Source of the DNA: an uncultured Planctomycetaceae bacterium
Lineage (GTDB): Bacteria; Planctomycetota; Phycisphaerae; Sedimentisphaerales; UBA12454
Reading direction: 5' to 3'
Assembly: GCA_964449435.1 (NCBI GenBank)
Contig: CAYUYR010000001.1
Location: forward strand, 134,796 to 198,795
DNA: 64,000 bases
Positions 887 through 44,456 of this stretch are shown here, one piece after another. Every line of letters starts with the position of its first letter. Within the stretch, counting starts at the first letter, position 1. Made by a program: the position numbers and the translations under genes. Under the pieces are notes generated by a model, which ran no database searches, was not told the DNA's origin, and saw only the letters and a list, made by a program, of their open reading frames with translations.

Positions 887-3097
887 TTACTGCTGTTGTT
901 TTTGCCGCTTTTCAGATTCAAGATACTCGATGTATTGCCGCAGTTGACTAACAGCATCTGTATTTCCGGTTTGGGAAAAGAACTTAACGGCTTCCTGAGA
1001 GGCCTTAAGTGCTTCGTCAAACATTTCTTGAAATTCAAGTGCTCGTATTAGGCTAATTTGGTTCTCTAAAATCGAAGGATTTAGTTCAACGGCTTTCCTG
1101 AAATACACCGCCGCTTCATCAAACTTCCCCAACTCGGCTAATGAGTCTCCTAAAAGAACATTTATTTTGATAGATTCCGGATTATTCTTTAATTCCTCAC
1201 GGTATCTTTCAGCCGCCTTGCTGAATTCCTGAGAAGCTTCCCGATATTTGCCCAGCATTTTTAGTGCTGTGCCTAGACTGTAATGCAAATTCGCGGTATT
1301 TTCCTTAAATTCAGCTTTCTCGTCGTTATACTTAATAGCCTTTTTGAAGTTTTGAACGGCTTCTCCAAACCGGCCTTGTGCGGCTCTAATCATAGCCATT
1401 TCATAGTATGCAATAGTAGAGGCGGAGGGTTCGATTTTAATTATTTCTTCATATTTTGCAGCAGCTTCATCGAGTTTGCCCGCTTGTTTAAGTGTCTTTA
1501 TCTGCTCCCGCTTTTTTCCAACCAGCAAATCTTTCGCGCTTTGGTGCACTACAGGGGCGAGCAGATTTTCCACAGGGACATAATCATCAGTTAGTACTAT
1601 TTGGCGTGCCTTTTGTATGGCCGCTGACATTTCAGTATCGTTAAGATGCCAAAAATGTAGCGACTGTCTGTATTGCTTCATAAGCTTATCAGGTTCAAAT
1701 TCTCTTTTGGAAGCGATCAGTACGAATAAGGTGCGATTGGAGCGATGCTCATCCTCAGCTAAAACATAAACGTAAGGAAAGGTCTGCTTTAATGTATTGA
1801 TATAGGCGCCTAAAAAGCGTGCGCTGTTATAGATATCAATTGAATTTATCATATATACGCCGTCATCTGTAAGAATTTCGGCAATTTTATCGTTGAATTC
1901 TTTAGTAACAAGTTGATACGGCACCGAATAATCGCTAAAAGCGTCTTCGTAAATAAAATCGTATACCTTTGTTTGTTTTTTACTCAGAAGTTTATCAACA
2001 TAATTTCGAGCGTCCATCTGGAGGGTATTAATTGAACTGTTTTTTGAAAGTCCGAAAGCAGCCATAGCGGCCTTTGTAACACCGGGGTCTATCTCGGCAA
2101 CGTCATTTCGGCTTTTCGGCCAATGAGATTCTATATATTGCGGGAAAACGTATCCGCCTCCGCCGATATGGAAAACAGACAGGGACTCTTTGCCGTCGCT
2201 GAGTCCGTGTGTTAATGCTGCAAAAACAATAGTGTGAAAATATAACAGATCGTCTTTCTTATCCATTAAAATTTCGCTGTGCATCAGTTTGTCTTGCATA
2301 AACAATCTTTTATCAGGGTCTTTAGAAAGCTGTTTTACCGCAACATAGCAATAAGCAGTTTCGTCCCGGTAAATAATTTGAGGGTCGATTTTCTCTCTCA
2401 GTCCAGTGGATGTCCCTGCTTTTTGCAAGGATTCTGCCGGGGCCATTCCCATTAAAAATGCGCATAGAAACACTACGAGCCAGATGTACGCGGGCCAAAG
2501 ACGCACCCAATATAAAATTCCCATAACAAGCAGTGCCGCCCCAACGCTCCAGATTATCGCTATTGTTCCCATTGCCGGAATCAGATAGAAACCAGCCGCG
2601 AAAGTGCCGAAAATGCTTCCTGCCACACCCCATGCATAAATATCGCCGACGGTACGGCCTGTGGGCAGCCCTCTATCGAGAGCCATTTTAGCGACGACCG
2701 GACTTATCATACCCAGCAGCAGCGACGGCCCCAAAAATACCAAGGCTACGTGTGTGAATACCCTTACCGGCCAGCTTAATTTCCACAGCCATATCCATTC
2801 GCCGACCAGATTGTTCAGTATTACCACTACTACGCAGGCGATAGAGGAGAGAACAAAAATCACGGACAAGGCTTTTCGCGCCTTGAATTTATCCGCTATT
2901 CGTCCCCCTAAATAATTACCGATGGCTATGCCTGACAGCACTATGCCTATAACGGCCGTCCAGGTATATAATGAAGAACCCAGATGTCTTGCTATTAATC
3001 TGCTGGCAACCAGCTCAAGAATCATAATACAGGCGCTTGATATAAATACAGTGGCGCTGGGGATAAGAATCGACAAAAAACCTTTAGACTTATTCAT
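887..3097 (-). CDS. Fused polytopic membrane domain / spermidine synthase-like methyltransferase-fold / TPR-repeat protein
   Basis: 736 aa. N-terminal ~210 aa has multiple hydrophobic helices. Central region has 'FHIGGGGYVFPQYIE', 'EIDPGV', 'DARNY' and 'IYEDAFSDYSVPYQLVTKEF' (spermidine synthase-like SAM fold). C-terminal ~200 aa is TPR-like repeats. Confidence 0.75.
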   Translation of the reverse strand: MNKSKGFLSILIPSATVFISSACIMILELVASRLIARHLGSSLYTWTAVIGIVLSGIAIGNYLGGRIADKFKARKALSVIFVLSSIACVVVVILNNLVGEWIWLWKLSWPVRVFTHVALVFLGPSLLLGMISPVVAKMALDRGLPTGRTVGDIYAWGVAGSIFGTFAAGFYLIPAMGTIAIIWSVGAALLVMGILYWVRLWPAYIWLVVFLCAFLMGMAPAESLQKAGTSTGLREKIDPQIIYRDETAYCYVAVKQLSKDPDKRLFMQDKLMHSEILMDKKDDLLYFHTIVFAALTHGLSDGKESLSVFHIGGGGYVFPQYIESHWPKSRNDVAEIDPGVTKAAMAAFGLSKNSSINTLQMDARNYVDKLLSKKQTKVYDFIYEDAFSDYSVPYQLVTKEFNDKIAEILTDDGVYMINSIDIYNSARFLGAYINTLKQTFPYVYVLAEDEHRSNRTLFVLIASKREFEPDKLMKQYRQSLHFWHLNDTEMSAAIQKARQIVLTDDYVPVENLLAPVVHQSAKDLLVGKKREQIKTLKQAGKLDEAAAKYEEIIKIEPSASTIAYYEMAMIRAAQGRFGEAVQNFKKAIKYNDEKAEFKENTANLHYSLGTALKMLGKYREASQEFSKAAERYREELKNNPESIKINVLLGDSLAELGKFDEAAVYFRKAVELNPSILENQISLIRALEFQEMFDEALKASQEAVKFFSQTGNTDAVSQLRQYIEYLESEKRQKQQQ

Positions 3098-3425
3098 TAT
3101 TGAGTTTCCTTAAAATCGGTTCAGCAAGTATAACAGGTTAATTAAATTAAGGCAAGATGAACCATAAGTTAATATAAAGACGTTGAAAGTAGACAATTTA
3201 TTTGTTAATATCAGGTTAATTAGCGGCATTTAAAGCCTTTTCAGTATTAAAAAAGGTGAAAAATTCTCTTTTGTCCGATAAAGCCTAAAGTTATTATACT
3301 CCAAAGGCCGAAAATTCAGATATGGGACTATGTAATTTAAGATTGAAGATTTACGACCTAAGAAATAGTAAAAAAGCTGTTTAATGCTAAAAATACGTAT
3401 GAGACAGGTTCAAAACAGTAGATTA

Positions 3426-3460: not shown

Positions 3461-3480
3461 AGGAATAAAGGATTATTCAA

Positions 3481-4743
3481 ATGAGAACGATAGCAGTAAT
3501 TAACCAAAAGGGCGGATGCGGAAAAACCACTGTTTCGATAAACCTTGCCAGCGCTCTCGCTGATGAAGGCAAGAAAACTTTACTGATTGACATGGACCCG
3601 CAGGGCCATTGCGCAGTTGGTCTTGCTGTGCCTGATGAGCAGATTGAGCAGAGCATTTACGATGTAATGCTCGGTTCAAGGCGAGGCGAGCCGACAAAGC
3701 TTTCTGAGATTTTGTGGGAGATTAGCGACAATTTCGAGCTTGCACCGGCGAGCATCGACCTGGCGGCTTTCGAGCAGCAGACCAACGGCACCACTGACCG
3801 TGAAAACTGCTTAAAGGATGTCCTCGCGGCCGTTGAAAAAGATTACGACTATGTGATTATCGATTGTCCGCCTGCCGTGGGGCTTTTGACTTTTAATGCC
3901 CTTCGCGCTTCGACGGACGTTATCGTGCCGGTAGAGACCGGATACTTTTCCCTTCATGGCCTAAGCAGACAGCTCGACACTTTAAGTATCCTCTGCAAGC
4001 AGTGTTCGCAGCATATAAATGTTATGGTTCTGGCCAGTATGTACGATATTCGAACGAAGATGGGCAGAGAGATTCTCGCCGAGCTTCGCAAGAATTTCGC
4101 AGGCAGAATGTTCTGGACGGTCGTCAACTTTAATACCAAGCTCAAGGAAGCCGCAAGTCTCGGCCAGCCGATATGCGAATACGACCCGGCAAGCAGGGGG
4201 CACAAGGATTTTCAGAGTCTTGCACAGGAGCTAATCGCTTCCGATACGCATATTGAGCAAAAACAGACGCTCAGCATAGCACGTAAGCAGATGCCGCCGG
4301 TAACAGAGCCTGCTATTCAGACGAGCAAGAGAAAAGAGATTATCGAATCGCTGGATGACAATTTTGAGTCTATAAGTGCTTCTGCTCAGGAGCTTCTTGC
4401 GGGTATTAAGGACAGTCCTGCCAAGGCCCTCGCCGCCCAGAATTTGGATGACAAGCTTAACGATTTTTATGGTGTTCGCCAACTCGGCGGCGCCGTCAGG
4501 TTTATTACCCTTTATCCGCGGGCACAGAATGTGCAGATTGCGGGCGATTTCAACAATTGGCAGCCTCAGAAAACAGCAATGCAAAAGAGCAAAGACGGAA
4601 AATGGGAATTGGCTCTCGAACTGGCTCCGGGCAAATATCGTTACAGAATGGTTGTTGACGGCCAGTGGCAGCAGGACCCGTATAATGAAAATGTCGAAGT
4701 GAATCCATTTGGGGAATATAACTCGGTTCTCGAAGTAAGATAA
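3481..4743 (+). CDS. Orphan ParA/MinD-family ATPase fused to a C-terminal AMPK-beta/CBM48-type glycogen-binding domain
   Basis: Deviant Walker A 'VINQKGGCGKTT' and 'VIIDCPPA'. After a ~85-aa linker the C-terminus reads 'IAGDFNNWQP...DGKWELALELAPGKYRYRMVVDGQWQQDPYNE...NSVLEV', the AMPK-beta GBD/CBM48 pattern. No parB adjacent. Confidence 0.85.
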   Translation: MRTIAVINQKGGCGKTTVSINLASALADEGKKTLLIDMDPQGHCAVGLAVPDEQIEQSIYDVMLGSRRGEPTKLSEILWEISDNFELAPASIDLAAFEQQTNGTTDRENCLKDVLAAVEKDYDYVIIDCPPAVGLLTFNALRASTDVIVPVETGYFSLHGLSRQLDTLSILCKQCSQHINVMVLASMYDIRTKMGREILAELRKNFAGRMFWTVVNFNTKLKEAASLGQPICEYDPASRGHKDFQSLAQELIASDTHIEQKQTLSIARKQMPPVTEPAIQTSKRKEIIESLDDNFESISASAQELLAGIKDSPAKALAAQNLDDKLNDFYGVRQLGGAVRFITLYPRAQNVQIAGDFNNWQPQKTAMQKSKDGKWELALELAPGKYRYRMVVDGQWQQDPYNENVEVNPFGEYNSVLEVR

Positions 4744-4768: not shown

Positions 4769-4796
4769 GCATCCGCTAAAAACGGATGCTTTTTTA
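4769..4796 (+). terminator. Rho-independent terminator after the ParA-CBM48 gene
   Basis: GCATCCG-ctaaaaa-CGGATGC hairpin followed by T6. Confidence 0.75.
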
Positions 4797-4805
4797 TTTA
4801 ATCCC

Positions 4806-4894: not shown

Positions 4895-5941
4895 TTAATT
4901 AGCTCTGTCAATGTCCGAAACAAGATAGCTGTCGTCCACATGCCGTGGGTAATAAGTGTCGTCTGTTTGTATAGCAGTTGAGATTCTTATTGTAGGTAGA
5001 GTTCCGGTACCGCCGGCCGTTGATGAAGCGTCTTTTCCGCATTGTCTTTTTCTTTCAACTTCATCAGCACTGCCTGTTAAAGGCGATTCTCCCCAAGTGG
5101 TATAAATATTATCCGACTCGACGCCGCAATTTGCCTGTTTCTCAAATTTTGCACGCATATCCGCATAAAGAACGTTCTGTCCTTCCTTTTGGTGGTATGT
5201 GGAATTTCCGGCCGGGACCGAATCAACTCTAATTCGATCGTTTGTTGAGTCCCAAACATAAAGATAAGCAGTAGAAGTACTATCTATAGGGCTTTGCCAG
5301 AATGGACTTCTATCGGCCACAATCGGCCTCGTAAGGCTTGATGTTGTAGTTGGCGCAAAGACACCACCAGCTTGGCTTGCGACAAGCTTCACTGGTAATT
5401 GATAAGAATAACTTTGGTGTCCTTTGCCCCTGCTGCCATCCGGCACATCATGCTCTCTTGAACCAAAGTCCCATACTTCGGTTATAGTGGGAGGTGGAGT
5501 GGTCGCAAATTCATATTTGTTTATTTCGAATTTTTTCTGGTCCGAACCCGGGCAGATAAACTGTTCAACTGGAACATCGGCATATTTTACAAGTAAATAG
5601 AGATGAGCATTGAGGGTAACTCTGTGCAGAGCCGTTGTCTCTTCGAATATTACGTTTCTCCAGTCAAATGAATTTATACCTTCAATACCGCCTGTGCCTC
5701 GGTTCCACGTGGCGTCTGCACTTCCGGCAACGGGGAAAGACTCATATTTGTCGTCGCTACTGTAGGCCAGCATTGCTTTGCCGATACCCGAGATATTTGT
5801 GCCGCATATCAGACGCTGGGCAAGCTGTCGGATTTTGCTCAAAGCGGGCATAAGAATAGCCAACAGCATCGCGATAATGGCGATAACCACCAGCAATTCA
5901 ACCAGTGTAAAGCCTTTCTTTTTCATTTTCTGCCTTTCCAT
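4895..5941 (-). CDS. Prepilin-type N-terminal cleavage/methylation domain protein (pseudopilin-like, DUF1559/H-X9-DG type)
   Basis: N-terminus '[27 protein letters not shown]'. C-terminal 'YHQKEGQNVLYADMRAKF' resembles the H-X9-DG motif. Start could instead be the second ATG at 5926. Confidence 0.8.
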   Translation of the reverse strand: MERQKMKKKGFTLVELLVVIAIIAMLLAILMPALSKIRQLAQRLICGTNISGIGKAMLAYSSDDKYESFPVAGSADATWNRGTGGIEGINSFDWRNVIFEETTALHRVTLNAHLYLLVKYADVPVEQFICPGSDQKKFEINKYEFATTPPPTITEVWDFGSREHDVPDGSRGKGHQSYSYQLPVKLVASQAGGVFAPTTTSSLTRPIVADRSPFWQSPIDSTSTAYLYVWDSTNDRIRVDSVPAGNSTYHQKEGQNVLYADMRAKFEKQANCGVESDNIYTTWGESPLTGSADEVERKRQCGKDASSTAGGTGTLPTIRISTAIQTDDTYYPRHVDDSYLVSDIDRAN

Positions 5942-6675: not shown

Positions 6676-8310
6676 ATGGCGATTACGCGGTTTGCACCAT
6701 CTCCGACGGGTTATCTTCACATTGGCGGGGCACGTACGGCCCTTTTCGACCTTTTATGGGCAAGAAAGACCGGCGGCAGCTTTATTCTTCGTATCGAAGA
6801 CACCGACCAGAGCCGAAACAGCCTAACCGCCGCAAAACAGGTAATGGACGATTTAAGATGGCTGGGGATTCAATGGGACTATGGCCCCGAAGTCGGCGGC
6901 CCGGCCGAACCGTATTACCAATCGCAAAGGCTTTATATTTACAGCCGTTATATCGAGCAGCTTTTGACTGCAGGCAAAGCCTATTATTGTTTCGATACCG
7001 CCGATGAACTCGACCAGATGCGCAAAAAGGCCGCCGAGAAAAAGCAGAACTTTGTCTATCCCCGTCCGAGTAAATTTCCAGACTCCGCGGACGTGGAAAA
7101 AGCAAAGGCCGCCGGCAGAGATGTTATGGTGCGTTTCTGTATGCCCGACGAGGAAGTAATTGTCGATGATGTGGTACGAGGACAGGTCAAATTCGACGCC
7201 AAAGATATCAGCGATTTTATAATCCTCAAAAGCGACGGCTTTCCTACCTATCATTTCGCCTGCGTTATCGACGACGAGCTTATGGGCATAACGCACGTTA
7301 TCAGAGGCCAGGAACATTTGATGAATACTCCCGGCCATATCGCTCTGCAAAAGGCGCTCGGATTTAAAACGCCTGTTTACGCCCATATGTCGATAACCGT
7401 CAGCGAAGGCGGCGGGAAAATGTCCAAACGCGACAGGGCAAAAGTCCTGAAGAACGCAATCAAAAAAACAGAAGGACTGGACAAGGAAAAACTCGCATCC
7501 ATCGGCGGCATAAGTATCGCTGAACTTGATGAATTCCTTACCGGCAAAGGCACTCCCGATAATCCGGCCATTGACGTGATGGCGAACTTTTTGGGTATCG
7601 AGCTGCCGGAGGTAAATATCGTCGATTTCTTCAAAAGCGGCTATCTGCCGCAGGCACTTGTGAATTTCATAGCGCTTTTGGGCTACAGCCCGCCGCTTGA
7701 TAAGGAGATTCTTACCTTTCAGGAGCTTATAGATACGTTCGACCCATCGCGGTTTAACAAGACAAACAGCCTTTTCGACCGTAAAAAACTGCTCGCGTTC
7801 AATATGGAACATATAAAACTGCTTGGCGAAGACGAACTTTTAAGCAGATATAAGGATTTTCTTAAAGTTGTAAAATCACCTGCCGCCGATGCCGATGATG
7901 CGCTGCTTAAAAGGATTTTAAAGGCAAGCCAGGGTGCAAGAACGCTTGCGGACATCGACCACAAGAGCAGATTTTTATTTATCGAAGACGGCAAAATAGA
8001 ATATAACCAGAAAGATGTGGAAAAAGTACTTCTTAAAAATAACGGCGAAGGCCTTGCGATGCTGACCGAATTGAAAACATTGCTGTCGCAGCTTCCGGTT
8101 TTGAATGAAGAAACAATAGAGAAAATGCTGCGGGCCCTTGCAGAGCAAAAGCAGGTCGGCCTCGGCAGGATTGCTCAGCCGCTGCGGGTCGCGATTTGCG
8201 GCACGACAGTTTCGCTGCCGATTTTCGAATCGATTGATATGCTTGGCCTCAAAGAGACAGTTAAAAGGATTGAAAGAACTATTAAAAAGTTTGAGGAGAA
8301 TTCATTATGA
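6676..8310 (+). CDS. gltX: Glutamate--tRNA ligase
   Basis: 'RFAPSPTGYLHIGGARTALF' (HIGH motif) and 'GGKMSKRD' (KMSKS motif). 544 aa. Confidence 0.95.
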   Translation: MAITRFAPSPTGYLHIGGARTALFDLLWARKTGGSFILRIEDTDQSRNSLTAAKQVMDDLRWLGIQWDYGPEVGGPAEPYYQSQRLYIYSRYIEQLLTAGKAYYCFDTADELDQMRKKAAEKKQNFVYPRPSKFPDSADVEKAKAAGRDVMVRFCMPDEEVIVDDVVRGQVKFDAKDISDFIILKSDGFPTYHFACVIDDELMGITHVIRGQEHLMNTPGHIALQKALGFKTPVYAHMSITVSEGGGKMSKRDRAKVLKNAIKKTEGLDKEKLASIGGISIAELDEFLTGKGTPDNPAIDVMANFLGIELPEVNIVDFFKSGYLPQALVNFIALLGYSPPLDKEILTFQELIDTFDPSRFNKTNSLFDRKKLLAFNMEHIKLLGEDELLSRYKDFLKVVKSPAADADDALLKRILKASQGARTLADIDHKSRFLFIEDGKIEYNQKDVEKVLLKNNGEGLAMLTELKTLLSQLPVLNEETIEKMLRALAEQKQVGLGRIAQPLRVAICGTTVSLPIFESIDMLGLKETVKRIERTIKKFEENSL

Positions 8311-9101
8311 CAAAACAAAACGATAAAATTAAAAAAGACTTCAGAATAAAATTGCTTGAGCATATTAAATTGTTTAACTCTGCCGTTTCCGCTAATAATG
8401 GGGATTGGATAGTAAAGGGCTTTATAGATATAGCTAAAAATATTTACACCATATCTGTCGATACGAAAGTAATTTCTAAAATAATGGAACTGCTCCTTTT
8501 CCCTCAAATTTGTCGGATTGCAAAAAAAATGGGCTGCAAAATAGTCCTCTGCAAAGAACAAAATTCTTATCCTGATATTACTTTTATAGACAGGGAAAAT
8601 AACAAATTTGCCATTGACATAAAAAGTACCTATAGGATAAACGAAGAAAAAGTCAATGGAATGACTTTAGGGGCGTTTACGGGGTACTTTAGGTATAGAG
8701 ATAGTAAAAAAAATACCACTTTTTCTTATAATGAATATGCGGGGCATTTTGTTCTTGGTATAATATATTCGAGAAATGAGTCTGGCGATGAAAGAAAAGT
8801 TTATAAACTTAATGATCTGCAAAACATAACGTCAGTGATTAAGGATTTTACATTTTTTGTCCAGGAAAAATATCGAATAGCTGCTGACAATCCGGGAAGC
8901 GGCAACACAAAAAACATCGGGTCTTTGAAAAATATTGATAAACTGGTAAACGGGCGTGGGGTTTTTTCCGAACTCGGCGAAGATGTTTTTGATGATTATT
9001 GGATGTATTATCTGACAAAAGATATGGCGAAAGCGGCCGATTTAAAAGGGCCACCGTATAAAAACATAACCGAATACAAAAAATACAAGAAAATGAAATA
9101 G
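8307..9101 (+). CDS. Type II restriction endonuclease, EcoRV family
   Basis: Blocks match my recollection of R.EcoRV: 'VDTKVISKIMELL', 'QNSYPDITF', 'KFAIDIKSTY' (PD...D-I-K catalytic motif), 'PGSGNTKNIGS', 'YKNITEYKKY'. ATG overlaps the gltX stop (ATGA). Visibly AT-rich. Confidence 0.85.
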   Translation: MTKQNDKIKKDFRIKLLEHIKLFNSAVSANNGDWIVKGFIDIAKNIYTISVDTKVISKIMELLLFPQICRIAKKMGCKIVLCKEQNSYPDITFIDRENNKFAIDIKSTYRINEEKVNGMTLGAFTGYFRYRDSKKNTTFSYNEYAGHFVLGIIYSRNESGDERKVYKLNDLQNITSVIKDFTFFVQEKYRIAADNPGSGNTKNIGSLKNIDKLVNGRGVFSELGEDVFDDYWMYYLTKDMAKAADLKGPPYKNITEYKKYKKMK

Positions 9102-9106
9102 AAACG

Positions 9107-10186
9107 ATGAGAGCAAAGAAAAATACAATTGATAATTTGCAAATGAGTTTTATGAATGACGATGCGGTTTTTCCGTCAACACGGTATCAGGGCAGTAAGC
9201 TCAAGATAGCCGACTGGATTTGGGATGCTGTATGTGATTTGGAATTTGAGACGACTCTTGATGCTTTCGGCGGAGCAGGCAGTGTAGGCTATATGTTAAA
9301 GCAGCACGACAAACAAATAACTTACAATGATATATTAAAATTTAACTGGTATATCGGCTCTGCCCTCATTCAAAATGACGAGGTTGTTCTATCTGATGAA
9401 GATGTTGATTTTGTTTTGAATGAAAATTCAAAGGTAAAATATCCGACATTTGTTCATGATACATTTGGGGATATTTACTTTACCAAAGACGAAAATAAGT
9501 GGATTGATAGAGTAACGACAAATATATTCCTGCTTGATGATTTTTACAAACGGGCTTTGGGCTTTTTCGCTCTTTTTCAGGCTTGTATTATCAAGCGGCC
9601 TTATAATCTTTTTCACCGTAAAAACTTATATATAAGATTATCTGAGGTCGAGAGAAGTTTTGGCAACAAAACGACATGGGACACGCCTTTCCAGGAGCAT
9701 TTTAAGCAATTTGTGGGAGAGGCCAATCAGGCGGTTTTCTGCAACGGCAAGCAGAACAAGGCGTTAAATCTTGATGTTTTTGATATAAATGAACATTACG
9801 ATCTTGTCTATATTGACACCCCTTATATCTCTAAAAAAGGAGTAGGAGTGGACTATCTCGGTTTCTATCATTTTCTTGAAGGATTAGCAAACTATGATGA
9901 CTGGAAAGAGAGAATTGATTATCATAGCAAACACAAGAGGCTGAAAGGCAATAGTTCTGTTTGGACAGACAAAAATGCCATTATCTCTGGTTTTGACAAA
10001 CTCTTTGATAAATTTAATGAAAGTATTTTAGTTGTTTCGTATAGAGCCGATGGTATCCCCTCGATATCGCAGTTGGTGGATTTGCTGAAGAAATATAAGA
10101 CAGAGGTGCGAGAAATAAAACGGACTAGCTATAAATACGTACTTAGCACAAATCATTCGGAAGAAGTGTTAATTTTAGGAATTTAA
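9107..10186 (+). CDS. Dam/D12-class (alpha-group) N6-adenine DNA methyltransferase
   Basis: 'RYQGSKLKI', motif I 'DAFGGAGSVG', motif IV 'VYIDTPYI'. Starts 5 nt after the endonuclease stop. Confidence 0.85.
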   Translation: MRAKKNTIDNLQMSFMNDDAVFPSTRYQGSKLKIADWIWDAVCDLEFETTLDAFGGAGSVGYMLKQHDKQITYNDILKFNWYIGSALIQNDEVVLSDEDVDFVLNENSKVKYPTFVHDTFGDIYFTKDENKWIDRVTTNIFLLDDFYKRALGFFALFQACIIKRPYNLFHRKNLYIRLSEVERSFGNKTTWDTPFQEHFKQFVGEANQAVFCNGKQNKALNLDVFDINEHYDLVYIDTPYISKKGVGVDYLGFYHFLEGLANYDDWKERIDYHSKHKRLKGNSSVWTDKNAIISGFDKLFDKFNESILVVSYRADGIPSISQLVDLLKKYKTEVREIKRTSYKYVLSTNHSEEVLILGI

Positions 10187-18920: not shown

Positions 18921-19970
18921 TTAATTTAATTTTGCTCTAAGCGTTTCAGCCCTGAGGATATCGCGCTGCTCGGCGTTGAGTGTTCGGCCTTTGTTCATCT
19001 GCAAGTGTGCAGGCTGGGTGAGTAAAAACAGCTCGTTTATCGTGTTAATCGATATTTCTTTTATTCTGCCCATATTTATACCCATTCTCAGGTTGCTCAA
19101 AAGGAACATAGCTTCGTGCGAGCTGATTAGTCTTGCGTTTTTCAGCACCGCCAAAGCGCGGGCGATTCTATCGTCCAGAATATTGGCGTCTTTGACCAGC
19201 AGCTTGTCGCGGGCCACTCTTTCGTATTCGACGATTTTAGGGATTATCAACGTCTGAAAATCTTCGACAATTTGTTTTTCGCTTATGCCCAGCGTAACCT
19301 GATTTGAAATCTGGAAGAAATCGCCGACCGCTTCCGTTCCTTCGCCAAACAGTCCCCGAACTGTAAGGTTCATATCCTTTACTGCCTCGAACAGTTTTTT
19401 AAGCTGCTCGGTCATTTTAAGGCCGGGCAGGTGCATCATCACCGAGACCCTTATACCTGTTCCGACGTTGGTAGGGCAGGCCGTCAAAAATCCGTATCGC
19501 CTGCTGAATGCGTATTCGATTTTTTCGCCTATGCAGTCGTCAATCCGGCTGATTTGCTCCCAGCATTTGTCAAGATTTAAACCCGGCGCAAGTACGCAGA
19601 GCCTTAAATGGTCTTCCTCGTTTATCTGTGCGGCGAAGAGCTCATTCGCGGCGATAACAACGCCTCGCGGCCCTCGGCCGATAGCGAGATTTCGGCTTAT
19701 AAGCTGTCTTTCGATAAGAAAATCCCGTTCGATACTGCTTCCGCCTGCGATGTCTATAAAAGCGATATCGCCCAGCCCGCCGAGCGATAGTATGATTTCC
19801 TTGAGGGTTCGCAGAATATTTTGTTTTTCCTCATCGTCGCAGCGGCAAATAAATCGATGTCCTGCCAAATTACGCGCAAGCCTTATTCGTGAGGAAACCA
19901 CAATGTCCGATAACGGAACATCAGGGTCGAACCATCGGCTCGTTTTCGTACTTAAATCTGTTAGTCTCAT
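18921..19970 (-). CDS. mcsB: Protein arginine kinase (ATP:guanido phosphotransferase)
   Basis: 'ACPTNVGTGIRVSVMMHLPGL' guanido-kinase active-site block. 349 aa. Start overlaps the mcsA stop. Confidence 0.9.
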   Translation of the reverse strand: MRLTDLSTKTSRWFDPDVPLSDIVVSSRIRLARNLAGHRFICRCDDEEKQNILRTLKEIILSLGGLGDIAFIDIAGGSSIERDFLIERQLISRNLAIGRGPRGVVIAANELFAAQINEEDHLRLCVLAPGLNLDKCWEQISRIDDCIGEKIEYAFSRRYGFLTACPTNVGTGIRVSVMMHLPGLKMTEQLKKLFEAVKDMNLTVRGLFGEGTEAVGDFFQISNQVTLGISEKQIVEDFQTLIIPKIVEYERVARDKLLVKDANILDDRIARALAVLKNARLISSHEAMFLLSNLRMGINMGRIKEISINTINELFLLTQPAHLQMNKGRTLNAEQRDILRAETLRAKLN

Positions 19971-20509
19971 TGCAGGTCTTTTAACCGGTCTCTGATTTTT
20001 GCCGCCAGCTCGTAATCTTCCTTCTTGACGGCTGCGTTCAATTGTTTTTGCAGCTCTTCGATTTTGTCCCTGTTGTCGTCCTCAGCGCCGTCGCCGCTTT
20101 GCGCCTTGGCGGGGACTTTGCCTTTGTGCGCCAGATTATTATCCTGTGTCTTTTCGATAACTTCTTTCAGTTCATCCTCGAAAATTTCGTAGTCTTTCGG
20201 ACAGCCCAGAAGCGCCTGTTTGCGAAACTGCTCCATAGTAATTCCGCATTCGCAGCAAACTTTCTTCGATATTTCAGAATCGCCGATTTCATCGCTGTGC
20301 TGATGAGCGGCGATGAGCGAACTCAAAAGCTCGTTTAGCGAAAGCTGGCTCTTTACAGACACACCTTCTTTTTGTGCGCAGTTCTGGCACAAATGGCTTT
20401 CAGTCCGCTGGCCGTTGATTATCTCGGTCAGATGAACCGTTGCTGTTTTGGTTTTACAAATCTCACACTGCATATCCGTTCGACTCCGCTCAGGAAAAGA
20501 CCGTTCCAC
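19967..20509 (-). CDS. mcsA: McsA-like activator of protein arginine kinase (zinc-finger + UVR domain)
   Basis: 'CEICKTK...HLCQNC' and 'CCECG' Cys pairs. C-terminal UVR-like 'AAVKKEDYELAAKIRDRLKDL'. Confidence 0.8.
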   Translation of the reverse strand: MERSFPERSRTDMQCEICKTKTATVHLTEIINGQRTESHLCQNCAQKEGVSVKSQLSLNELLSSLIAAHQHSDEIGDSEISKKVCCECGITMEQFRKQALLGCPKDYEIFEDELKEVIEKTQDNNLAHKGKVPAKAQSGDGAEDDNRDKIEELQKQLNAAVKKEDYELAAKIRDRLKDLQ

Positions 20510-25701: not shown

Positions 25702-27810
25702 ATGAGAAAATTAAAAACAGGTTTAGTTATTGTTTGTTTAGTTTGTTTTTGCCAACTATTATATGCCTTTGAAAACAAATATACCCATCCGGCAATAACA
25801 AAAGAGGCGGTCAATAATACTACCTCGCAAATAGATGATTATTTGAAAACGCAACTGGGTTTCGGTAGTGGATTAACGACGGAATTATACTGGAATTTCC
25901 CATCGGATATAGAGAAAAGAATAAAAGCAGGTGATGCAAACCCTGCCGAGAAAACCAGAACCATGCTCGAATGGATTAAAACTGGCAGTAATATTGAAGA
26001 TGAAGATGGAAGTGTATTTGTACCTCCTTACAGGGCACGACATCATTTTCATGACCCATATCGCAATGCTGGTTTGGATAATCATACCGATAATCCCGGT
26101 TGGGATGCCCCTTTCTGGTCGAGTTGGCTTCCGTTAGGAGAATCAGCATTGGATTGGGCAATAATTGGTCATAGTTCTTATGAGCCGTACAATAATCATG
26201 ATAAATGGATTACGGCAAGGAATATATTTTATCATTCCTTGACGGAGCCAAACAAAGCATCGCGTGAGGCATATTTGGCAGAATCTCTTATGAAATTAGG
26301 CTGTCTGTTGCATCTGCTTGAGGATATGGGAGTTCCTGCGCATACAAGAAACGATTTTCTCTTTGCGCATTTCAGAAGCGCCACAGCTTTTGGCAATCCG
26401 CTGGAAGAATGGGTTGAACAAAAGATAAAAAATAACGGTGGTAATATTCCGTCAAGTTTTCTTGCTGGCTGGACGCCGACACCGCAAGTTTTTGACAAAG
26501 TTTCGAGATATTTTGATACGGATATATACACAGGCAATTATCTTGGTGATGGCGTTCCGACTCCCGGCACGTGGGGGCTGTCGGAGAGAACTAATTATCA
26601 GTTTTTATCTTATAGTACAATTTTCAGGGCGGATGATGGCACAAAATATTATTTCCCTCATCCAGATCCTTGTAATACAAGCCCGCATATAGATTCATCC
26701 TGGTGGTACAAACGTCGTTACAAAACCGGCTACGGCATAACTCACTTGGCCAGAACAAAATATATAACAAAATATGCTGAGGATTATTTAGGGACTCCAT
26801 ATGCCGAGTCTGTAATACCGTATGATACGACTTTTGATAAAGCTATTTATAACGATTATGCGGCGATAACTTTGCCACGGACGATTAACTATGCGGCCGG
26901 GCTGGTTAATTACTTCTTCCGCGGCAGGTTAAGCGTGGAAGCCGAATGTATAGAATGTGATGTCTTTGAGCTTACTATTACCAATAAGTCAAGTAATTCC
27001 GGGACGCCGCAGACCTTAAAAGACGGCGATTTCGAGTTGTACTGGGAAGATGCGGCGGGCAATAGGGCGGAGGTGCCGGATTGCGGCATTGACGGCGGCT
27101 GGGCGTCGAGCAGCACTTTGGCTTATGATGGGACTGTAACGGCGACATTTATTAAGCCGACGGCGGGAGAGCCTGTTAAGTATATTTTGGTTTATAGGGG
27201 CAATATCTGTGAAAATCCGAACCAGCCGGATGCCGATGATGAAACCGCCATAGCCGTAACTGTCTTCGCTCCTCCATCGGACAATTGCTGTGTTGTAGTA
27301 GGGGCTTGTTGTTTGCCAGATGCGGATTGCAACCAAATAACGGAAAATGATTGCGCAGCACTTGGGGGCTATTGGCTTGGTGAAGACACCTCTTGCGATG
27401 ATTGTTATGTCGAAGGCGCAGGATGTTGCAACGTATATCCAGCACCAAAGTATAGATTTGTATCTCTGATTGGGTGGACAAGCCCCAGTTTTGAAGGATG
27501 CCCACGTTATGTGTTAAAAACATCGTCATTTATTGTATCTTTAACTATTGCATTTGGAGACGATTGCACTTATGACACGGGCTCTATCTCTGCCGTAGCA
27601 GACAGCTATCGGTACAATACAGATACAGGAGAGTGCGTTTACAGAGCGACTTGGGGGGGGTCATTGACTCTTGGCGTAAGTGTGGATAAAACGTTTGTTT
27701 CTTTTGGGTTGGAGGATGGTGAGGTTCTTTTTAGTGGTGAAAATGAGAGCTGTGGCGGAAGCGTCAGCAATACAATAGAAGAGTATGGGGGGAGCGCATC
27801 GGTGCGTTGA
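25702..27810 (+). CDS. Secreted zinc-dependent phospholipase C / S1-P1 nuclease-superfamily-like protein with a Cys-rich C-terminal region
   Basis: Signal peptide. 'YTHPAIT', 'ARHHFHDPY', 'HLLEDMGVPAHTRND' follow the His/Asp metal-site spacing of the PLC/P1 fold. C-terminus 'GACCLPDADCNQITENDCAALGGYWLGEDTSCDDC'. Confidence 0.5.
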   Translation: MRKLKTGLVIVCLVCFCQLLYAFENKYTHPAITKEAVNNTTSQIDDYLKTQLGFGSGLTTELYWNFPSDIEKRIKAGDANPAEKTRTMLEWIKTGSNIEDEDGSVFVPPYRARHHFHDPYRNAGLDNHTDNPGWDAPFWSSWLPLGESALDWAIIGHSSYEPYNNHDKWITARNIFYHSLTEPNKASREAYLAESLMKLGCLLHLLEDMGVPAHTRNDFLFAHFRSATAFGNPLEEWVEQKIKNNGGNIPSSFLAGWTPTPQVFDKVSRYFDTDIYTGNYLGDGVPTPGTWGLSERTNYQFLSYSTIFRADDGTKYYFPHPDPCNTSPHIDSSWWYKRRYKTGYGITHLARTKYITKYAEDYLGTPYAESVIPYDTTFDKAIYNDYAAITLPRTINYAAGLVNYFFRGRLSVEAECIECDVFELTITNKSSNSGTPQTLKDGDFELYWEDAAGNRAEVPDCGIDGGWASSSTLAYDGTVTATFIKPTAGEPVKYILVYRGNICENPNQPDADDETAIAVTVFAPPSDNCCVVVGACCLPDADCNQITENDCAALGGYWLGEDTSCDDCYVEGAGCCNVYPAPKYRFVSLIGWTSPSFEGCPRYVLKTSSFIVSLTIAFGDDCTYDTGSISAVADSYRYNTDTGECVYRATWGGSLTLGVSVDKTFVSFGLEDGEVLFSGENESCGGSVSNTIEEYGGSASVR

Positions 27811-33544: not shown

Positions 33545-35575
33545 ATGGAATTTAGTTTACCTGATATTTTGGTGTTTCTGGTGTTTGTAGTTTGTGTAAT
33601 TTCGGTAGGCCTGATTAAAAGCCGACACGAAAAGAGCAGCGAAGATTATTTTCTTGCCAGTCGAGGATTGAGCTGGTGGTTAATCGGATTTTCTCTGATA
33701 GCCGCCAATATATCTACCGAGCAGTTCGTCGGAATGAGCGGCAACGCCGCCAGCCATGTCGGCCTGGCAATTGCCAGTTATGAATGGATGGCTGCGATTA
33801 CCCTTGTATTAGTTGCGTTTTGTTTTCTGCCGTATTTCCTGCGAGCAGGAATTTTCACCATACCTGAGTTTCTTGAATACAGGTATAACTCCACAGCGCG
33901 AACAATTATGGCAGTCGCTACAATTTTTATCTACTTGCTTTTACTCGGCTCGGTAACATATTCCGGCGCATTGACGATTAGCACGCTTGCGGGGCAGATG
34001 GGGTACAATGTAAGTCTGCTTGCAGGGTCTTTGGTAATCGGCATTATAGCGATGATTTATGTTGGAGCAGGCGGCCTGAAAGCCTGCGCATGGGCGGATT
34101 TGATTCAAGGCAGCGCGCTGATAATCGGCGGCATTATAGTTCTGGTTTTTGCGTTTGTCAAACTCGGTATGGTAACCGAAGCAACAAAAATTGTAAATGT
34201 GGACACCGGAGCGATTGCAATTCAATCGTTTTCGCCGGATAGCGGGGCAGTTGAACGCTTTATGAGTTTGAACAGGGCTCGTATGAATATGTTTCTGCCG
34301 AAAACGGACAGCGTTTTGCCCTGGACGGCTTTATTGCTCGGCCTGTGGATTCCGAACTTGTATTACTGGGGACTTAACCAGTATGTTACCCAGAGGACTC
34401 TTGGTTCAAAATCGCTTTCTCAGGGGCAGAAGGGCATCGTCTTTGCCGCTGCGTTGAAACTGATAATGCCGTTTGCCATCGTAATTCCGGGCATAATAGC
34501 TTTTAACCTCTACGCCAAGGATATGCAGTTTGAAGCGACTTATGATAATGGGCCCGTAATTACAAAATATCTTAAAGCCAATCCTAATACAATGCTCGTA
34601 GAAAAGGTTTATTCGCCCGATGCAAATACAATTGCCGGCTGGCAAAGCGGGCGTTTTATGCTCGCTGTTTATGAAGACCAAAAGGCGCTAAAGGCTGTCA
34701 AAACACAAAATCCATTTGTGCTTTCGATTGAGCAGGCTAAATTTGACGCGGCATCTCCGGCGGAATTTACAGTATTCAAATCGGACGACAAGGCGTGGAA
34801 AAGTACATTTCCTGCTCTGGCTGTCGAACTTGACGATTATAACGCTTCTGTCGAAGCGGCGGCAAAAGCGGCCAATAGAAGGGTTTCAACGGAAAAATTC
34901 ATCGCCTACAAATATGACACTGCATTGGCGCAACTGCTCGGCAATGTTTTGCCGCAGAAGGTTGGCATTGTGGGGTTTGTGCTTGCGGCTCTTTTGGGCG
35001 CGGTGGTTAGTTCGCTGGCTGCCATGCTCAATGCGGCATCGACGATTTTTTCAATGGATGTTTACAAAAGATATATCTCGCCGAACGCATCGCAAAAGGC
35101 TATCGTATTTTTGGGGCGTACCTGCGTGGTGGTTTTTGGGTTCATAGCTATTGTGCTTGCGCCTCAGCTCGGCAATCCGAAAATCAGCAATAGTATTTTT
35201 ACAATCATTCAGGAAGGACAGGGTTTTATTTCGCCGGGTATTTTGGCGGTATTTGTTTTTGGTTTTATTGTTCGCAAAGCTCCGCCTGCCGCCGGTGTAC
35301 TGGGGCTGCTTACGAACATTGTGTCTTATGGTATATTGAAATTTGCTGTTCCGAGTATTCAGTTCCTGAACCGTATGGCAATCTGCTTCGGCCTTTGCAT
35401 TTTGGTTATGACTATTATTACGCTGCTCAAGCCTTTGGCAAAACCAATCGAGTTTAAGCAGAATACGACGATTGATTTGAAGACTTCTAAAGGCGCATTG
35501 CTCGTCGGCATAGTCGTTGTTGTAATTACGCTGATTTTCTACGTGATATTCAGCCCGTTCGGAATAGCGAAGTAA
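33545..35575 (+). CDS. Sodium:solute symporter family (SGLT-like) sugar transporter
   Basis: 'SRGLSWWLIGFSLIAANISTEQFVGMSG'. About 14 hydrophobic segments plus a ~140-aa soluble insert. Confidence 0.9.
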   Translation: MEFSLPDILVFLVFVVCVISVGLIKSRHEKSSEDYFLASRGLSWWLIGFSLIAANISTEQFVGMSGNAASHVGLAIASYEWMAAITLVLVAFCFLPYFLRAGIFTIPEFLEYRYNSTARTIMAVATIFIYLLLLGSVTYSGALTISTLAGQMGYNVSLLAGSLVIGIIAMIYVGAGGLKACAWADLIQGSALIIGGIIVLVFAFVKLGMVTEATKIVNVDTGAIAIQSFSPDSGAVERFMSLNRARMNMFLPKTDSVLPWTALLLGLWIPNLYYWGLNQYVTQRTLGSKSLSQGQKGIVFAAALKLIMPFAIVIPGIIAFNLYAKDMQFEATYDNGPVITKYLKANPNTMLVEKVYSPDANTIAGWQSGRFMLAVYEDQKALKAVKTQNPFVLSIEQAKFDAASPAEFTVFKSDDKAWKSTFPALAVELDDYNASVEAAAKAANRRVSTEKFIAYKYDTALAQLLGNVLPQKVGIVGFVLAALLGAVVSSLAAMLNAASTIFSMDVYKRYISPNASQKAIVFLGRTCVVVFGFIAIVLAPQLGNPKISNSIFTIIQEGQGFISPGILAVFVFGFIVRKAPPAAGVLGLLTNIVSYGILKFAVPSIQFLNRMAICFGLCILVMTIITLLKPLAKPIEFKQNTTIDLKTSKGALLVGIVVVVITLIFYVIFSPFGIAK

Positions 35576-35777
35576 TACCAATAACAAAGAAGATGACGGC
35601 TTTGTTTGAGGTCTTGTTGGTTGTGCGAGGCAAGTCGGCAAGCGCACAACTGCGGAGGGGTGGTGTTGCGCGTTTTTATGCGTCTGATATAAATAATAAG
35701 TACCTTGGACGCAGAATCAGTAAAACGCTTCACGCTTCACAAACGATGAAGTTTCCCCAGTTTAGCCATTTTTTCTT

Positions 35778-35806
35778 TTGACAATGTACAATCATTCATG
35801 TATACT
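35778..35806 (+). promoter_or_regulatory. Sigma-70-like promoter
   Basis: TTGACA - 17 nt - TATACT, about 125 nt upstream of the amylase start. Confidence 0.5.
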
Positions 35807-35931
35807 ATCTTGTGTCCTTTACCAGAACACTAAATAGTGCTTTAGGGTTGAAAAATACGGGTTTTTTCAATCGAGAGCTATAATACTGTAATTTTGGTGT
35901 GATAATATCGACAATGAATGAAAGGGAAAAA

Positions 35932-38040: not shown

Positions 38041-38107
38041 TAATGACACAAAAAAAGGGAAATTTCTAACGGCGTTGACCTATATAACAGGCGAAAGGGA
38101 AAAGATA

Positions 38108-40219: not shown

Positions 40220-40264
40220 CAAAAACCCCGAAATCTACGGCTATAATTAACGATTAAGGCGTCA

Positions 40265-42229: not shown

Positions 42230-42381
42230 TTGCTTACTCCTTATTACCCTATTCGGCTATTTTAGCGGTTTTGCAATAAGTTGTATATTAAGTAGTTTCA
42301 AGCGAAAGGGCAACGGATTATTTTCTCCGCTGCCCTTTACTTTCAGTTGCTTGAACTGGTCTGCAAAATGTTACTTCAGCG

Positions 42382-43737
42382 CTACGGTCTGCCGCCTCCG
42401 CCGTCTGGTGGTCCGCCGCCGGGTCCGCCGTCATCGCCGCCGCCGCCGTCGCCGCTGCCTTCCGCCCAGTAGGCATATCCCCTGGCAGGTGCGGTCAAAG
42501 TCACATTGCCGTCCGCGTCGGATGTAACATCAGCCGGCTGATCGCCAGGACCCCATGCTACCGCCGTATACGTTGTGCTTGCCTTTAGTGTTACCGTACC
42601 GCCGCCCGCTCTCCGATCGCTGTTGAAACAGCCATAAACCGGCGCATTATTCTTGAAAATAATGAAGCTGGTCGCCTTGTAGATGGTAGATGTGCCGCTA
42701 AAGTCATACTGCTTTCTTGCATCCAGAGCACGCTGGATACTTGGCTGTAAAGTAGAGTTAAACCAGTCCGGCCAGAACACACAAGGGGTCGGCTCAATAT
42801 ACATAATAAACCCGTAAGCCATGTCTTTGGCGCCAATCCCGTCCGAGTCGTGGTTGGCGACGAAACTTACACCCTTGCTTGAGCAAAGGCCGGCTCCATC
42901 AAGAGCGCCGGCTCCGGAATCCTTCATCGTATAATAAAGCGGGAAGTCAAAGGCGTAATTGCCCGTGTGGCTCATCCAGTTCAGGATGTTCTCTTTGCTG
43001 TCCCAGTACTCGCCTACACACATACCGAGGGTGCCGAATGTCTTGGACATATCCCAACTAAAATGCTTGACAGCATCCAGCCGGAAACCCGCCACATTGC
43101 CAATCGTGGACTTCATCCAGCTGGCCCAGTTCTTCTGGCCGTCGTACATATAGCTGGTCATATGAGCTACGTCCTCGCCCATAATGTATTCATAGCCGTC
43201 GCTGTCCGCCGGCTCGCCAGGATGAAAGTGTTCACAGCCCTTCTCGAATGTGCCATGCGGGTAGTAAAAATTCTGCCAATATGATTTTCCATCCCCTGCA
43301 TCTACACACTGCTCGGGTGCGCCCATCATATGGTTTGGCACGAGGTCCGGAAGAACGTTGCCGCAAGCTTGGGCGGCTGCCTGAAGCTCTGAGAGACTTC
43401 CAAAGGCAGTTTCAATTGTGCCTTTCTGGTCGTATTCGCCTAAATCATAGTTATCGAACACGTCATAGCCCATTCCGCTATTGCCGCTGCTGCCCTTGCA
43501 AGGTACCGGGAACCAGAAATGCGTAAAGCCCGCTGTTTTCAATCCTGAAGCCCTGTCCGCGATATAATTGTACCAGTTGCCCTTGCCTGACTCGTTAAAG
43601 CAGTCCCAGTAAAAGGCCTGGAACATTATTATGCTGCTTTCTGCGGCAAACAGGATGCTGTTTGTACCAGCAATCAACAGGAGCAGCATAAGGACCAAAT
43701 TTGTCTTTTTTATCTTTCTCATTTTTTTTCCTTTCAT
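42382..43737 (-). CDS. GH13 alpha-amylase, archaeal-type core, copy A
   Basis: 'FQAFYWD', 'GMGYDVFDNYDLGEYDQKGTIETAFGS', 'DLVPNHMMG', 'GFRLDAVKHF', 'GEYWD', 'FDFPLYY', 'FVANHD'. Gly/Asp-rich tail. Start may be the ATG at 43722. Confidence 0.9.
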   Translation of the reverse strand: MKGKKMRKIKKTNLVLMLLLLIAGTNSILFAAESSIIMFQAFYWDCFNESGKGNWYNYIADRASGLKTAGFTHFWFPVPCKGSSGNSGMGYDVFDNYDLGEYDQKGTIETAFGSLSELQAAAQACGNVLPDLVPNHMMGAPEQCVDAGDGKSYWQNFYYPHGTFEKGCEHFHPGEPADSDGYEYIMGEDVAHMTSYMYDGQKNWASWMKSTIGNVAGFRLDAVKHFSWDMSKTFGTLGMCVGEYWDSKENILNWMSHTGNYAFDFPLYYTMKDSGAGALDGAGLCSSKGVSFVANHDSDGIGAKDMAYGFIMYIEPTPCVFWPDWFNSTLQPSIQRALDARKQYDFSGTSTIYKATSFIIFKNNAPVYGCFNSDRRAGGGTVTLKASTTYTAVAWGPGDQPADVTSDADGNVTLTAPARGYAYWAEGSGDGGGGDDGGPGGGPPDGGGGRP

Positions 43738-44135: not shown

Positions 44136-44163
44136 ATTATACCAAACCTGTTTTTCGTGTCAA
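44136..44163 (-). promoter_or_regulatory. Consensus sigma-70 promoter for amylase copy A
   Basis: Minus strand reads TTGACA - 16 nt - TATAAT. About 390-405 nt upstream of the start codon. Confidence 0.55.
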
Positions 44164-44423: not shown

Positions 44424-44456
44424 ACTTAAAATCGTCTGCAAAATGTTACTTCAGCG

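Follow-up and report, generated by a model that had tools for sequence, protein, structure and literature searches.

A Soj-type ParA ATPase fused to an AMPK-beta-type carbohydrate-binding module in Phycisphaerae, a candidate one-protein device for placing glycogen

ATPases of the ParA/MinD group place chromosomes, plasmids, carboxysomes and chemoreceptor arrays inside bacterial cells, and their cargo is recognized by a separate adaptor protein. We know of no positioning system for glycogen, the most widespread bacterial carbon store. What might a ParA-type ATPase do that carries a glycogen-binding module on its own polypeptide chain? The question is raised by a gene of an uncultured Planctomycetaceae bacterium (assembly GCA_964449435.1, contig CAYUYR010000001.1), from which we analyzed a stretch of 64,000 nucleotides (positions 134,796 to 198,795, hereafter the window). 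The open reading frame (ORF) at 3481..4743 of the window, on the plus strand, runs from an ATG start through its stop codon and encodes a protein of 420 aa made of three parts: a Soj-type ParA ATPase (residues 1-252), an 83-aa linker and a C-terminal carbohydrate-binding module (CBM) of the CBM48/AMPK-beta type (residues 336-420). We propose that this fusion may position or tether cytoplasmic alpha-glucan (glycogen) by means of a single polypeptide, a reading to which we give a rough probability of 45%.

The ATPase domain (3481..4236, plus strand) was recognized by Pfam, by its nearest solved structures and by its fold. AAA_31 matched residues 1-180 with an E value of 5.6e-52 (176.7 bits against a curated cut-off of 27) and CbiA matched residues 4-231 with 69.3 bits (cut-off 25.4). 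By sequence, the structures nearest to the N-terminus were 8ray (5e-50), T. thermophilus Soj (1wcv, 9e-45) and H. pylori Soj (HpSoj; 6iub, 4e-40), whereas MinD was a far weaker match (1e-15), and the domain is 36-42% identical to chromosomal Soj proteins. In a full-length AlphaFold model of the fusion protein, whose mean predicted local distance difference test score (pLDDT) was 66.7, Foldseek aligned the ATPase with B. subtilis Soj, 8ray and T. thermophilus Soj at template modeling (TM) scores of 0.82-0.84, and with Soj and ParA structures overall at 0.80-0.84, all target-normalized. The Walker A motif NQKGGCGKTT (residues 8-17; 3502-3531, plus strand) includes the signature lysine. Conservation was followed in 140 family representatives of at most ~50% mutual identity, of which 139 keep K10 and K15 and all 140 keep D37, D39 (aligned with D41 of HpSoj) and D128. 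The domain is complete, with all of its predicted catalytic residues intact; sequence, Pfam and fold here agree with the initial annotation, made from the DNA letters, which had read a complete ParA/MinD ATPase from 'NQKGGCGKTT' and 'VIIDCPPA'.

We rejected MinD-like membrane targeting, as the C-terminus is a CBM and the match to MinD is far weaker than that to Soj. Two cysteine-containing features were also seen in the domain. One is a Cys within the Walker A loop (KGGCGKT; residue 13, window 3517-3519), present in 119 of the 140 representatives and replaced by Ser or Val in the others; the second is a conserved His-Cys pair after DxDPQ (residues 43-44, window 3607-3612), where Soj has Asn-Ala. 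Together they could form a redox- or metal-sensitive feature near the dimer interface.

The second domain (residues 336-420 and the stop codon; 4486..4743, plus strand) was delimited by Pfam, by alignment with 1z0n and by fold. Two profiles matched it well above their curated cut-offs, AMPK1_CBM on residues 348-420 (E=3.6e-14, 53.2 bits against 26.8) and CBM_48 on residues 338-401 (E=9e-11, 42.4 bits against 22.4), confirming the CBM48/AMPK-beta pattern first proposed for residues ~335-420. The best sequence match to the C-terminus in the PDB was the glycogen-binding domain of AMPK beta1 (1z0n, E=4e-8). Structure prediction, suggested alongside the initial annotation as a check, gave an AMPK-beta-type fold: a second model, built from a deeper alignment, reached a pLDDT of 94-98 over the CBM and matched the CBMs of AMPK beta1 and beta2 with target-normalized TM scores of 0.78-0.82 and root-mean-square deviations of 1.4-2.6 Å. 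The fold also matches the CBM48 of branching enzymes (rice BEI, E. coli GlgB), and feruloyl esterases are among the fold matches as well.

In AMPK beta1, W100, K126, W133, G147 and N150 are required for glycogen binding (PMC6274970). Alignment with 1z0n places W360, R389, W396, G411 and N414 of the fusion protein at these positions and F410 at that of L146. These six are the predicted ligand residues, with E412 standing at the AMPK T148 position. Among the 140 representatives, W360 is kept in 97%, Arg or Lys at 389 in 95%, W396 in 95%, G411 in 96% and Asn or Asp at 414 in 86%. The C-terminal domain thus belongs to the CBM48 modules of the AMPK-beta glycogen-binding type, and its predicted sugar-stacking residues are intact. 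The AMPK/SNF1 beta module is its closest sequence match and shares with it a whole-domain fold (TM ~0.8) and the contact residues; the domain of the fusion differs in being borne by a P-loop ATPase instead of a kinase scaffold, in the change of T148 to Glu and in being bacterial and confined to one class.

Between the two domains lies a mostly disorder-like linker (residues 253-335; 4237..4485, plus strand). Linkers of the family measure 21-439 aa (median 146), contain much Ala, Pro, Glu, Ser and Thr, and are near-neutral in charge. Because of this variable length and composition, the linker looks like a flexible tether, and the full-length model has no confident contact between the domains. 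The ~85-aa low-complexity linker of the initial annotation was thus right in length and general character but is not featureless, since it holds two conserved islands. Island 1 (residues 284-308; 4330-4404, plus strand) is an amphipathic helix with a/d-type spacing of L291, L295, I298, A302 and L305, which in the broad family reads [ST]RA[AE][ED]LAxRARxL; island 2 (residues 321-334, D.KLNDFYGVRQ; 4441-4482, plus strand) runs into the CBM. The models predicted low-confidence helices at residues 281-308 and 314-330. The conserved amphipathic helix is a new observation here, and it could serve in dimerization, in docking on the ATPase or in its activation.

Is the fusion a peculiarity of this genome? 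All 120 best database matches carry both domains, at 61-94% identity, and so do the 120 best matches of a second, profile-based search; the names given to the matches of the first search go no further than 'AAA family ATPase', 'hypothetical protein' or 'chromosome partitioning protein'. When one genome per species was scanned, at least 578 matched stretches encoded a relative, the best 80 of them almost all full length. When representatives of clusters at 50% identity were searched, 150 matched with at least 265 bits, plain Soj scoring ~170 bits. Local hidden Markov models found the ATPase followed by exactly one C-terminal CBM in 141 of these 150 best clusters, while seven were ATPase-only, probably as fragments, and two were unrelated proteins with many CBM48 copies. 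The order of the domains is constant across the family. The informative organism names all belong to the class Phycisphaerae (Sedimentisphaerales, Anaerohalosphaeraceae, Tepidisphaerales, Phycisphaeraceae), across which the fusion is conserved, in several hundred species genomes; the spread over Planctomycetes-Verrucomicrobia-Chlamydiae bacteria in general that the initial annotation had envisaged was not borne out. The gene is also present in two cultured isolates, Anaerohalosphaeraceae bacterium U12dextr (L029 among our related loci) and Phycisphaeraceae bacterium D3-23 (L089, a closed chromosome).

The residues for ATP turnover and those for glucan contact are both kept, so that ATP cycling and glucan binding are clearly under joint selection. 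The selection on both sets is strongly purifying in a family whose members have diverged to as little as 36% identity, an argument for the two activities acting in concert.

Some database entries depart from this picture. Contigs labeled Candidatus Aegiribacteria (L057) and Candidatus Kuenenia stuttgartiensis (L074) hold copies 59-60% identical, and many metagenome-assembled genomes from automated pipelines that carry the fusion gene are labeled 'uncultured Pirellulales'. These labels are probably binning or labeling errors, because the curated names are all Phycisphaerae. An unfused, two-gene version of the system was considered and rejected: short linker-plus-CBM proteins on long contigs start inside the ATPase, with a truncated AAA_31 fragment just 5' of them and, on one such contig, many other split genes. 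They are therefore broken gene calls and not stand-alone adaptors. The two poly-CBM48 proteins, P0243 (1812 aa) and P0284 (1436 aa), hold 18 and 7 tandem copies, ~40% identical to the CBM of the fusion; they are unrelated to the cytoplasmic fusion, and P0284 is probably a secreted starch-binding enzyme, since its N-terminus resembles a signal peptide.

How could the two activities work together? In the model that we favor, the ATP-bound ATPase would dimerize and attach to some extensive surface in the cell; by analogy with Soj and McdA, this is most likely the nucleoid. A glycogen particle would be held by the CBM, and ATP binding and hydrolysis would make and break the links between glycogen and that surface. 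The minimal outcome would be a nucleotide-switched tether: glycogen would hitch-hike on the nucleoid and so be distributed over the length of the cell and passed to both daughters, not left at one pole. Full diffusion-ratchet spacing of granules could follow if a granule-bound factor stimulated the ATPase, and the candidates for this activator are the linker helix, at high density on the granule, or another partner. We infer the step from a ParA ATPase with a glucan-binding module to the positioning of granules on the nucleoid, and consider it plausible. A bolder form of the model strikes us as unlikely: a self-contained ParA machine that spaces and partitions glycogen condensates, in which the CBM48 would load the granule, the linker helices would stimulate nucleoid-bound dimers in trans, the resulting depletion gradient would part the granules, and a sigma-28-type developmental promoter (described below) would give daughter or dispersal cells their carbon reserve. 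If true, it would be the first system to position a stored polysaccharide, and also the first case of a ParA ratchet that does without a separate adaptor.

There are precedents for parts of this scheme. McdAB is the precedent for ParA-based spacing of organelles (PMC13052382). Like the proposed role of the fusion, it involves a ParA-type ATPase that organizes a large non-DNA cargo in the cytoplasm independently of parB, and McdB, the part that recognizes the cargo, contains a long disordered stretch that differs widely in length and sequence (PMC13052382), much like the linker here. McdA and McdB are two proteins, however, McdB both binding the cargo and stimulating McdA, whereas in the fusion the cargo module sits on the ATPase itself and a polysaccharide would take the place of the protein shell as cargo; the ATPase, which retains the signature lysine, is Soj-like, McdA structures ranking well below Soj in the fold search. 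PhaM, PhaF and PhaH offer the second precedent, as in each a single protein binds both the nucleoid and a storage granule of polyhydroxybutyrate (PHB), so that scaffold and granule binding lie in one polypeptide and serve the distribution and inheritance of a carbon store (PMC13052382). These proteins are not ATPases, carry histone-like DNA-binding tails and bind PHB instead of glucan, while the link made by the fusion would be nucleotide-switched.

Several points weigh against this reading. All of its support comes from sequence comparison, predicted structure and genomic context, and it assumes that these organisms store glycogen as particles. The position of AMPK T148 is Glu412 here and E, G or D across the family, and the phosphomimetic change T148D blocks glycogen binding by AMPK (PMC6274970). 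HpSoj binds non-specific DNA through K199, K227, K230 and K247 (PMC6393308); the equivalents here are R196, F217, K220 and A237, with R239 and K222 close by, and two of the four (R196, K220) are still basic. The K227 position is an invariant Phe in the subfamily, where the Soj motif IPRNVRL has become NFNT[KR]L, and over the 140 representatives of the broad family the DNA-contact positions are loosely conserved. Because these positions vary, the surface that the ATPase would pattern is uncertain. As for the linker helix, its hydrophobic positions are common to the broad family and the fusion protein, and its arginines are not kept in the subfamily. A ParA ratchet needs a partner that activates the ATPase, and all-against-all clustering of the ORFs of 89 loci found no universal, family-wide conserved neighbor. 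The window does hold a large alpha-glucan locus, but this locus is catabolic, lies 30-45 kb from the fusion gene and is not linked to it in relatives. There is also a rival in which the ATPase is a chromosomal one.

On that rival account, the fusion would be the chromosomal partition ParA of the lineage, a Soj orthologue that has acquired a CBM48. Segregation would be its main job, and glycogen would serve as an anchor or sink for ParA, in the manner of polar landmark proteins, or as a nutritional input to the control of segregation or replication. The ATPase is indeed nearest to bona fide chromosomal Soj, at the identity given above, rather than to MinD or McdA; the gene occurs throughout the class and looks single-copy, each of the 80 listed loci coming from a different contig; the Soj-type Arg is the commonest residue at the first DNA-contact position in the broad family; and the JGI annotation reads 'chromosome partitioning protein'. 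Canonical soj normally adjoins spo0J/parB. The Pfam model ParBc found no match among 38 window proteins, namely the 37 ORFs of at least 180 aa besides the fusion and one GH13-like ORF rescanned at a shifted start, the few ORFs left unscanned all lying inside annotated genes. The ParB box II motif GERRxRA was absent from the window and from ~90 related loci (flanks of up to 10 kb, shorter at contig ends), and the gene tables of those loci list no ParB. The remark in the initial annotation that no parB or other adaptor lies nearby thus holds in the window and in ~90 contexts; it had named adjacency to parB/parS in complete genomes as a possible refutation, and no parB stands beside the fusion gene in any of these contexts.

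Other evidence bears on the same point. The NCBIfam equivalog ParA_partition gave 108.4 bits, below its cut-off of 180, and the neighborhoods of the fusion gene vary by clade. The sugar-contact residues are near-invariant while the DNA-contact positions are loose, which points to glucan binding as a central and not an accessory function. The comparison with chromosomal ParABS (Soj and Spo0J) is therefore two-sided: it offers the nearest ATPase in sequence and in fold, with the same catalytic residues, and the fusion departs from it in having no nearby parB, in its ParA_partition score, in its CBM48 and in keeping basic residues at half of the four HpSoj DNA contacts. We hold it improbable on balance that the fusion is primarily a segregation ATPase. 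If it were, carbon storage would be tied to chromosome segregation, which would also be new.

What the neighborhoods do hold is clade-specific. The recurring neighbors are PurE with Memo, a secreted PEP-CTERM protein, HSP20 and an E2 acyltransferase, and the contexts fall by clade into a TPR protein, a pseudopilin and GltX (as in the window), DUF6057 with PurE-Memo, a Wza/Wzc/Wzy polysaccharide-export cluster, and, in Phycisphaeraceae, Maf-LpxK. All three Phycisphaeraceae loci encode a protein of 562-805 aa on the same strand, 50-225 nt 3' of the fusion gene (L089 11575-13263; L090 11449-13284; L091 11519-13936), with the N-terminus RQSIDDLAEHYLTG, the central part GNLPGLSGPWLTQYAQ and a conserved C-terminal domain. 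Neither Pfam nor the PDB gave a match for this protein, which the window and the loci of the Sedimentisphaerales type lack; it may be a clade-specific partner. Maf-LpxK stands divergently upstream in the same three loci. On one Phycisphaeraceae contig, a GH57 glycogen branching enzyme (Glyco_hydro_57 and BE_C; L091 5381-7084) lies 3 kb upstream of the fusion gene, and two bactofilin genes (L091 14333-15481) lie 3-4 kb downstream. The branching enzyme is a point in favor of glycogen as the cargo.

Some of these neighbors fit another account, in which the protein senses glycogen instead of moving it: occupancy by glucan would titrate or switch a ParA/MinD-type regulator with a different output, for example the placement of the division site, as with MipZ, PomZ or MinD. 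Maf upstream in all three Phycisphaeraceae loci and bactofilins nearby in one would suit such an output. The CBM is of the AMPK-beta subtype, AMPK1_CBM outscoring CBM_48, and in AMPK this module couples glycogen to the regulation of an enzyme (PMC6274970); the conserved linker helix could dock on the ATPase; and in E. coli both the nucleoid and the site of division are displaced by glycogen condensates (PMC12706056). Nevertheless, a candidate output partner was not found, the variable, disorder-like linker (21-439 aa) suits a tether better than a fixed regulatory interface, and the full-length model lacks a confident inter-domain contact. We consider a sensor of this kind quite unlikely, and prefer the positioning or tethering device.

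When would the protein be made? The 383-bp gap upstream of the gene has 30.5% GC, against 46.5% for the whole window, and it contains a strongly conserved, gene-specific promoter, an observation that is new here and was not part of the initial annotation. The promoter-like element (3286..3314, plus strand) is of a sigma-28/FliA-like type, with the -35-like TAAAGTTA at 3286-3293, a 13-nt spacer and the -10-like GCCGAAAA at 3307-3314, which ends 166 nt 5' of the ATG. The published FliA consensus is TAAAGTTT-N11-GCCGATAA (PMC7286023), with which each element of the window promoter agrees at 7 of 8 positions, while the spacer has 2 nt more. It thus resembles the sigma-28 consensus, and recognition by sigma-28 would rest on this likeness. 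Most related loci (L022, L029 and L063 among them) have its family form, TAAAG(TTTT), ~12-13 nt, (G)CCGAWAA, ~100-280 nt 5' of the gene, where the rest of the intergenic sequence cannot be aligned. Of 75-80 loci, 49-50 contain TAAAG-N13-18-CCGAWWA, as against 0-0.08% of shuffles and 1.2% of random windows, and ~50 of the 61 occurrences of this motif in 1.26 Mb of related DNA are directly upstream of the fusion gene. The high-GC branch, Phycisphaeraceae, has the form TCAAG-N15/16-CCCGATAA.

The promoter is accompanied by further elements. Directly 5' of the -35-like hexamer lies box A, TTGTCCGATAAA (3271..3282, plus strand), with the family form GTCC[GC]ATAAA; GTCC[GCA]ATAA is present in 68 of 80 loci against 0.5% of shuffles, and box A followed by TAAAG in 62 of 80 against 0%. 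Directly 3' of the -10-like element, the block TTCAGATATGGGACT (3315..3329, plus strand), kept among closer relatives, probably marks where transcription starts or where the 5' leader begins. Farther upstream, a palindrome-like box TTTTCAGTATTAAAAAA (3238..3254, plus strand; family consensus ~TCAGTAYTGA) has a weaker second copy at 3336-3352. Among 80 loci, 36 have a box within two mismatches of TCAGTACTGA, as do 13% of shuffled upstream regions; the enrichment is moderate, the box is not universal, and it is possibly the site of a regulator. We also considered an upstream structured RNA with a GTCC/GGAC stem, which was rejected when the alignment revealed no covariation, and Rfam found no known RNA upstream at E values up to 1. 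It is for these two reasons that the upstream element is read as a promoter.

On a third rival account, the cargo would not be storage glycogen. The module might bind another glycan or a protein, and the cargo might be a different one, in view of the promoter perhaps a structure of the motility or dispersal stage. FlhG and ParC, relatives within the ParA/MinD group, act on flagella and on chemoreceptor arrays. Beside this kinship and the resemblance of the promoter to the FliA consensus, the Glu at the AMPK T148 position could disfavor glycogen binding, and some CBM48 modules accompany non-glucan enzymes, such as the feruloyl esterases among the fold matches. We nevertheless find such a cargo very doubtful: the key aromatic and basic glucan-contact residues are kept at 95% or more, the best matches in both sequence and fold are glycogen- or starch-binding modules, and no flagellar or chemotaxis gene is linked to the fusion gene. 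Nor does the promoter form mark a wider regulon in the DNA covered. When metagenomes were scanned for the promoter variant of the lineage, 42 of 80 sampled hits preceded the fusion gene and the remainder were non-recurrent, box A also being present in 39 of the 80. No second recurrent gene stood behind the promoter form in these hits or in the 1.26 Mb of related DNA.

In one metagenome contig (L124, motif at 7999-8026), the product encoded downstream of the motif looks by eye like a sigma-70-family protein (...RYLPLVYGVSRRYCQR...). This arrangement is what an autoregulated fliA would look like.

The remaining signals describe a gene that stands alone. A Shine-Dalgarno-like AAGGA (3468..3472, plus strand) lies 8 nt 5' of the ATG, and GAATAAAGGATTATTCAA-ATG is kept across related loci in the upstream alignment. 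Downstream, an intrinsic terminator (4769..4799, plus strand) consists of the hairpin GCATCCG-CTAAAAA-CGGATGC and a T-run. A second hairpin (4846-4815, minus strand) terminates the convergent downstream gene (4895..5941, minus strand), which has a prepilin-type N-terminal methylation motif; upstream, the divergent neighbor (887..3097, minus strand) encodes a membrane protein with a weak spermidine-synthase-like match and TPR repeats. As its neighbors are divergent and convergent and it has its own terminator hairpin, the gene is monocistronic, and it is predicted to be transcribed on its own from the conserved promoter. The initial annotation had described it in this way, with an AT-rich upstream region and its own terminator. 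The N-terminus, inspected by eye, has no evident signal peptide, so that the protein and its ligand are presumably cytoplasmic.

How new is such a protein? Both of its components are well known; the novelty lies in their fusion, in the cargo predicted for it and in its doing without a separate adaptor. Plant PTST proteins, which consist of a coiled coil and a C-terminal CBM48, deliver partner proteins to starch granules as adaptors of starch synthase and have no ATPase. The fusion resembles them in having a helical segment followed by a C-terminal CBM48 that would target an alpha-glucan particle, and the comparison implies no homology outside the CBM48. Within the literature searched, most subscription journals lying outside it, no ParA/MinD ATPase was linked to glycogen, CBM48 or a glycogen-binding domain, in agreement with the earlier statement that there is no characterized example. 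To our knowledge, no such ParA-CBM protein has been described in E. coli. In that species, glycogen condensates gather at the old pole, displace the nucleoid and skew division (PMC12706056), and a 2025 review of organelle positioning never mentions glycogen (PMC13052382). The fusion is thus a candidate for the means by which some bacteria govern where their glycogen lies and how it is passed on. It may also represent a natural minimal ParA system, with motor and cargo-binder in one chain, useful for dissecting or engineering ParA ratchets. The proposal is directly testable, since two cultured isolates carry the gene and the E. coli condensates provide a heterologous read-out.

Altogether, the anatomical premises of the initial annotation stand (an intact ATPase, a genuine CBM, one chain, a monocistronic gene and no parB), while the linkage to an alpha-glucan locus is not conserved in relatives. 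That locus, which it had described as large and catabolic, is real (33545-51138) and contains an SSF transporter (33545-35575), four alpha-amylase-type glycoside hydrolases of family GH13 (35899-38040, with an X25 domain; 38009-40219; 42382-43737; 44457-45788), a MalA-like GH31 (46589-48802) and a PEP-CTERM protein with a weak CBM48 match (50317-51138). Because of its distance and the lack of conserved linkage, it adds little to the case. The two GH13 genes of 443-451 aa look like recent paralogues in view of their near-identical profile scores, and a pseudopilin-like gene also lies within the cluster. Two large ORFs, at 25702-27810 (702 aa) and, inside the alpha-glucan locus, at 40265-42229 (654 aa), had no Pfam or NCBIfam match.

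Other genes of the window were also noted. Between gltX and pfkB (window 8307-10186) lie a restriction endonuclease of the EcoRV family (E=5e-103) and an N6-adenine methyltransferase of class D12; the pair looks like an insertion, since in the syntenic locus L006 gltX is followed directly by pfkB. An ATP:guanido phosphotransferase resembling the protein arginine kinase McsB is encoded directly 3' of a UVR-motif protein resembling McsA (window 18921-20509, minus strand), a pairing best known from Firmicutes. Near the end of the window (61035-61949) lies a gene for a protein with a BRO-N domain, which is typical of phages and mobile elements.

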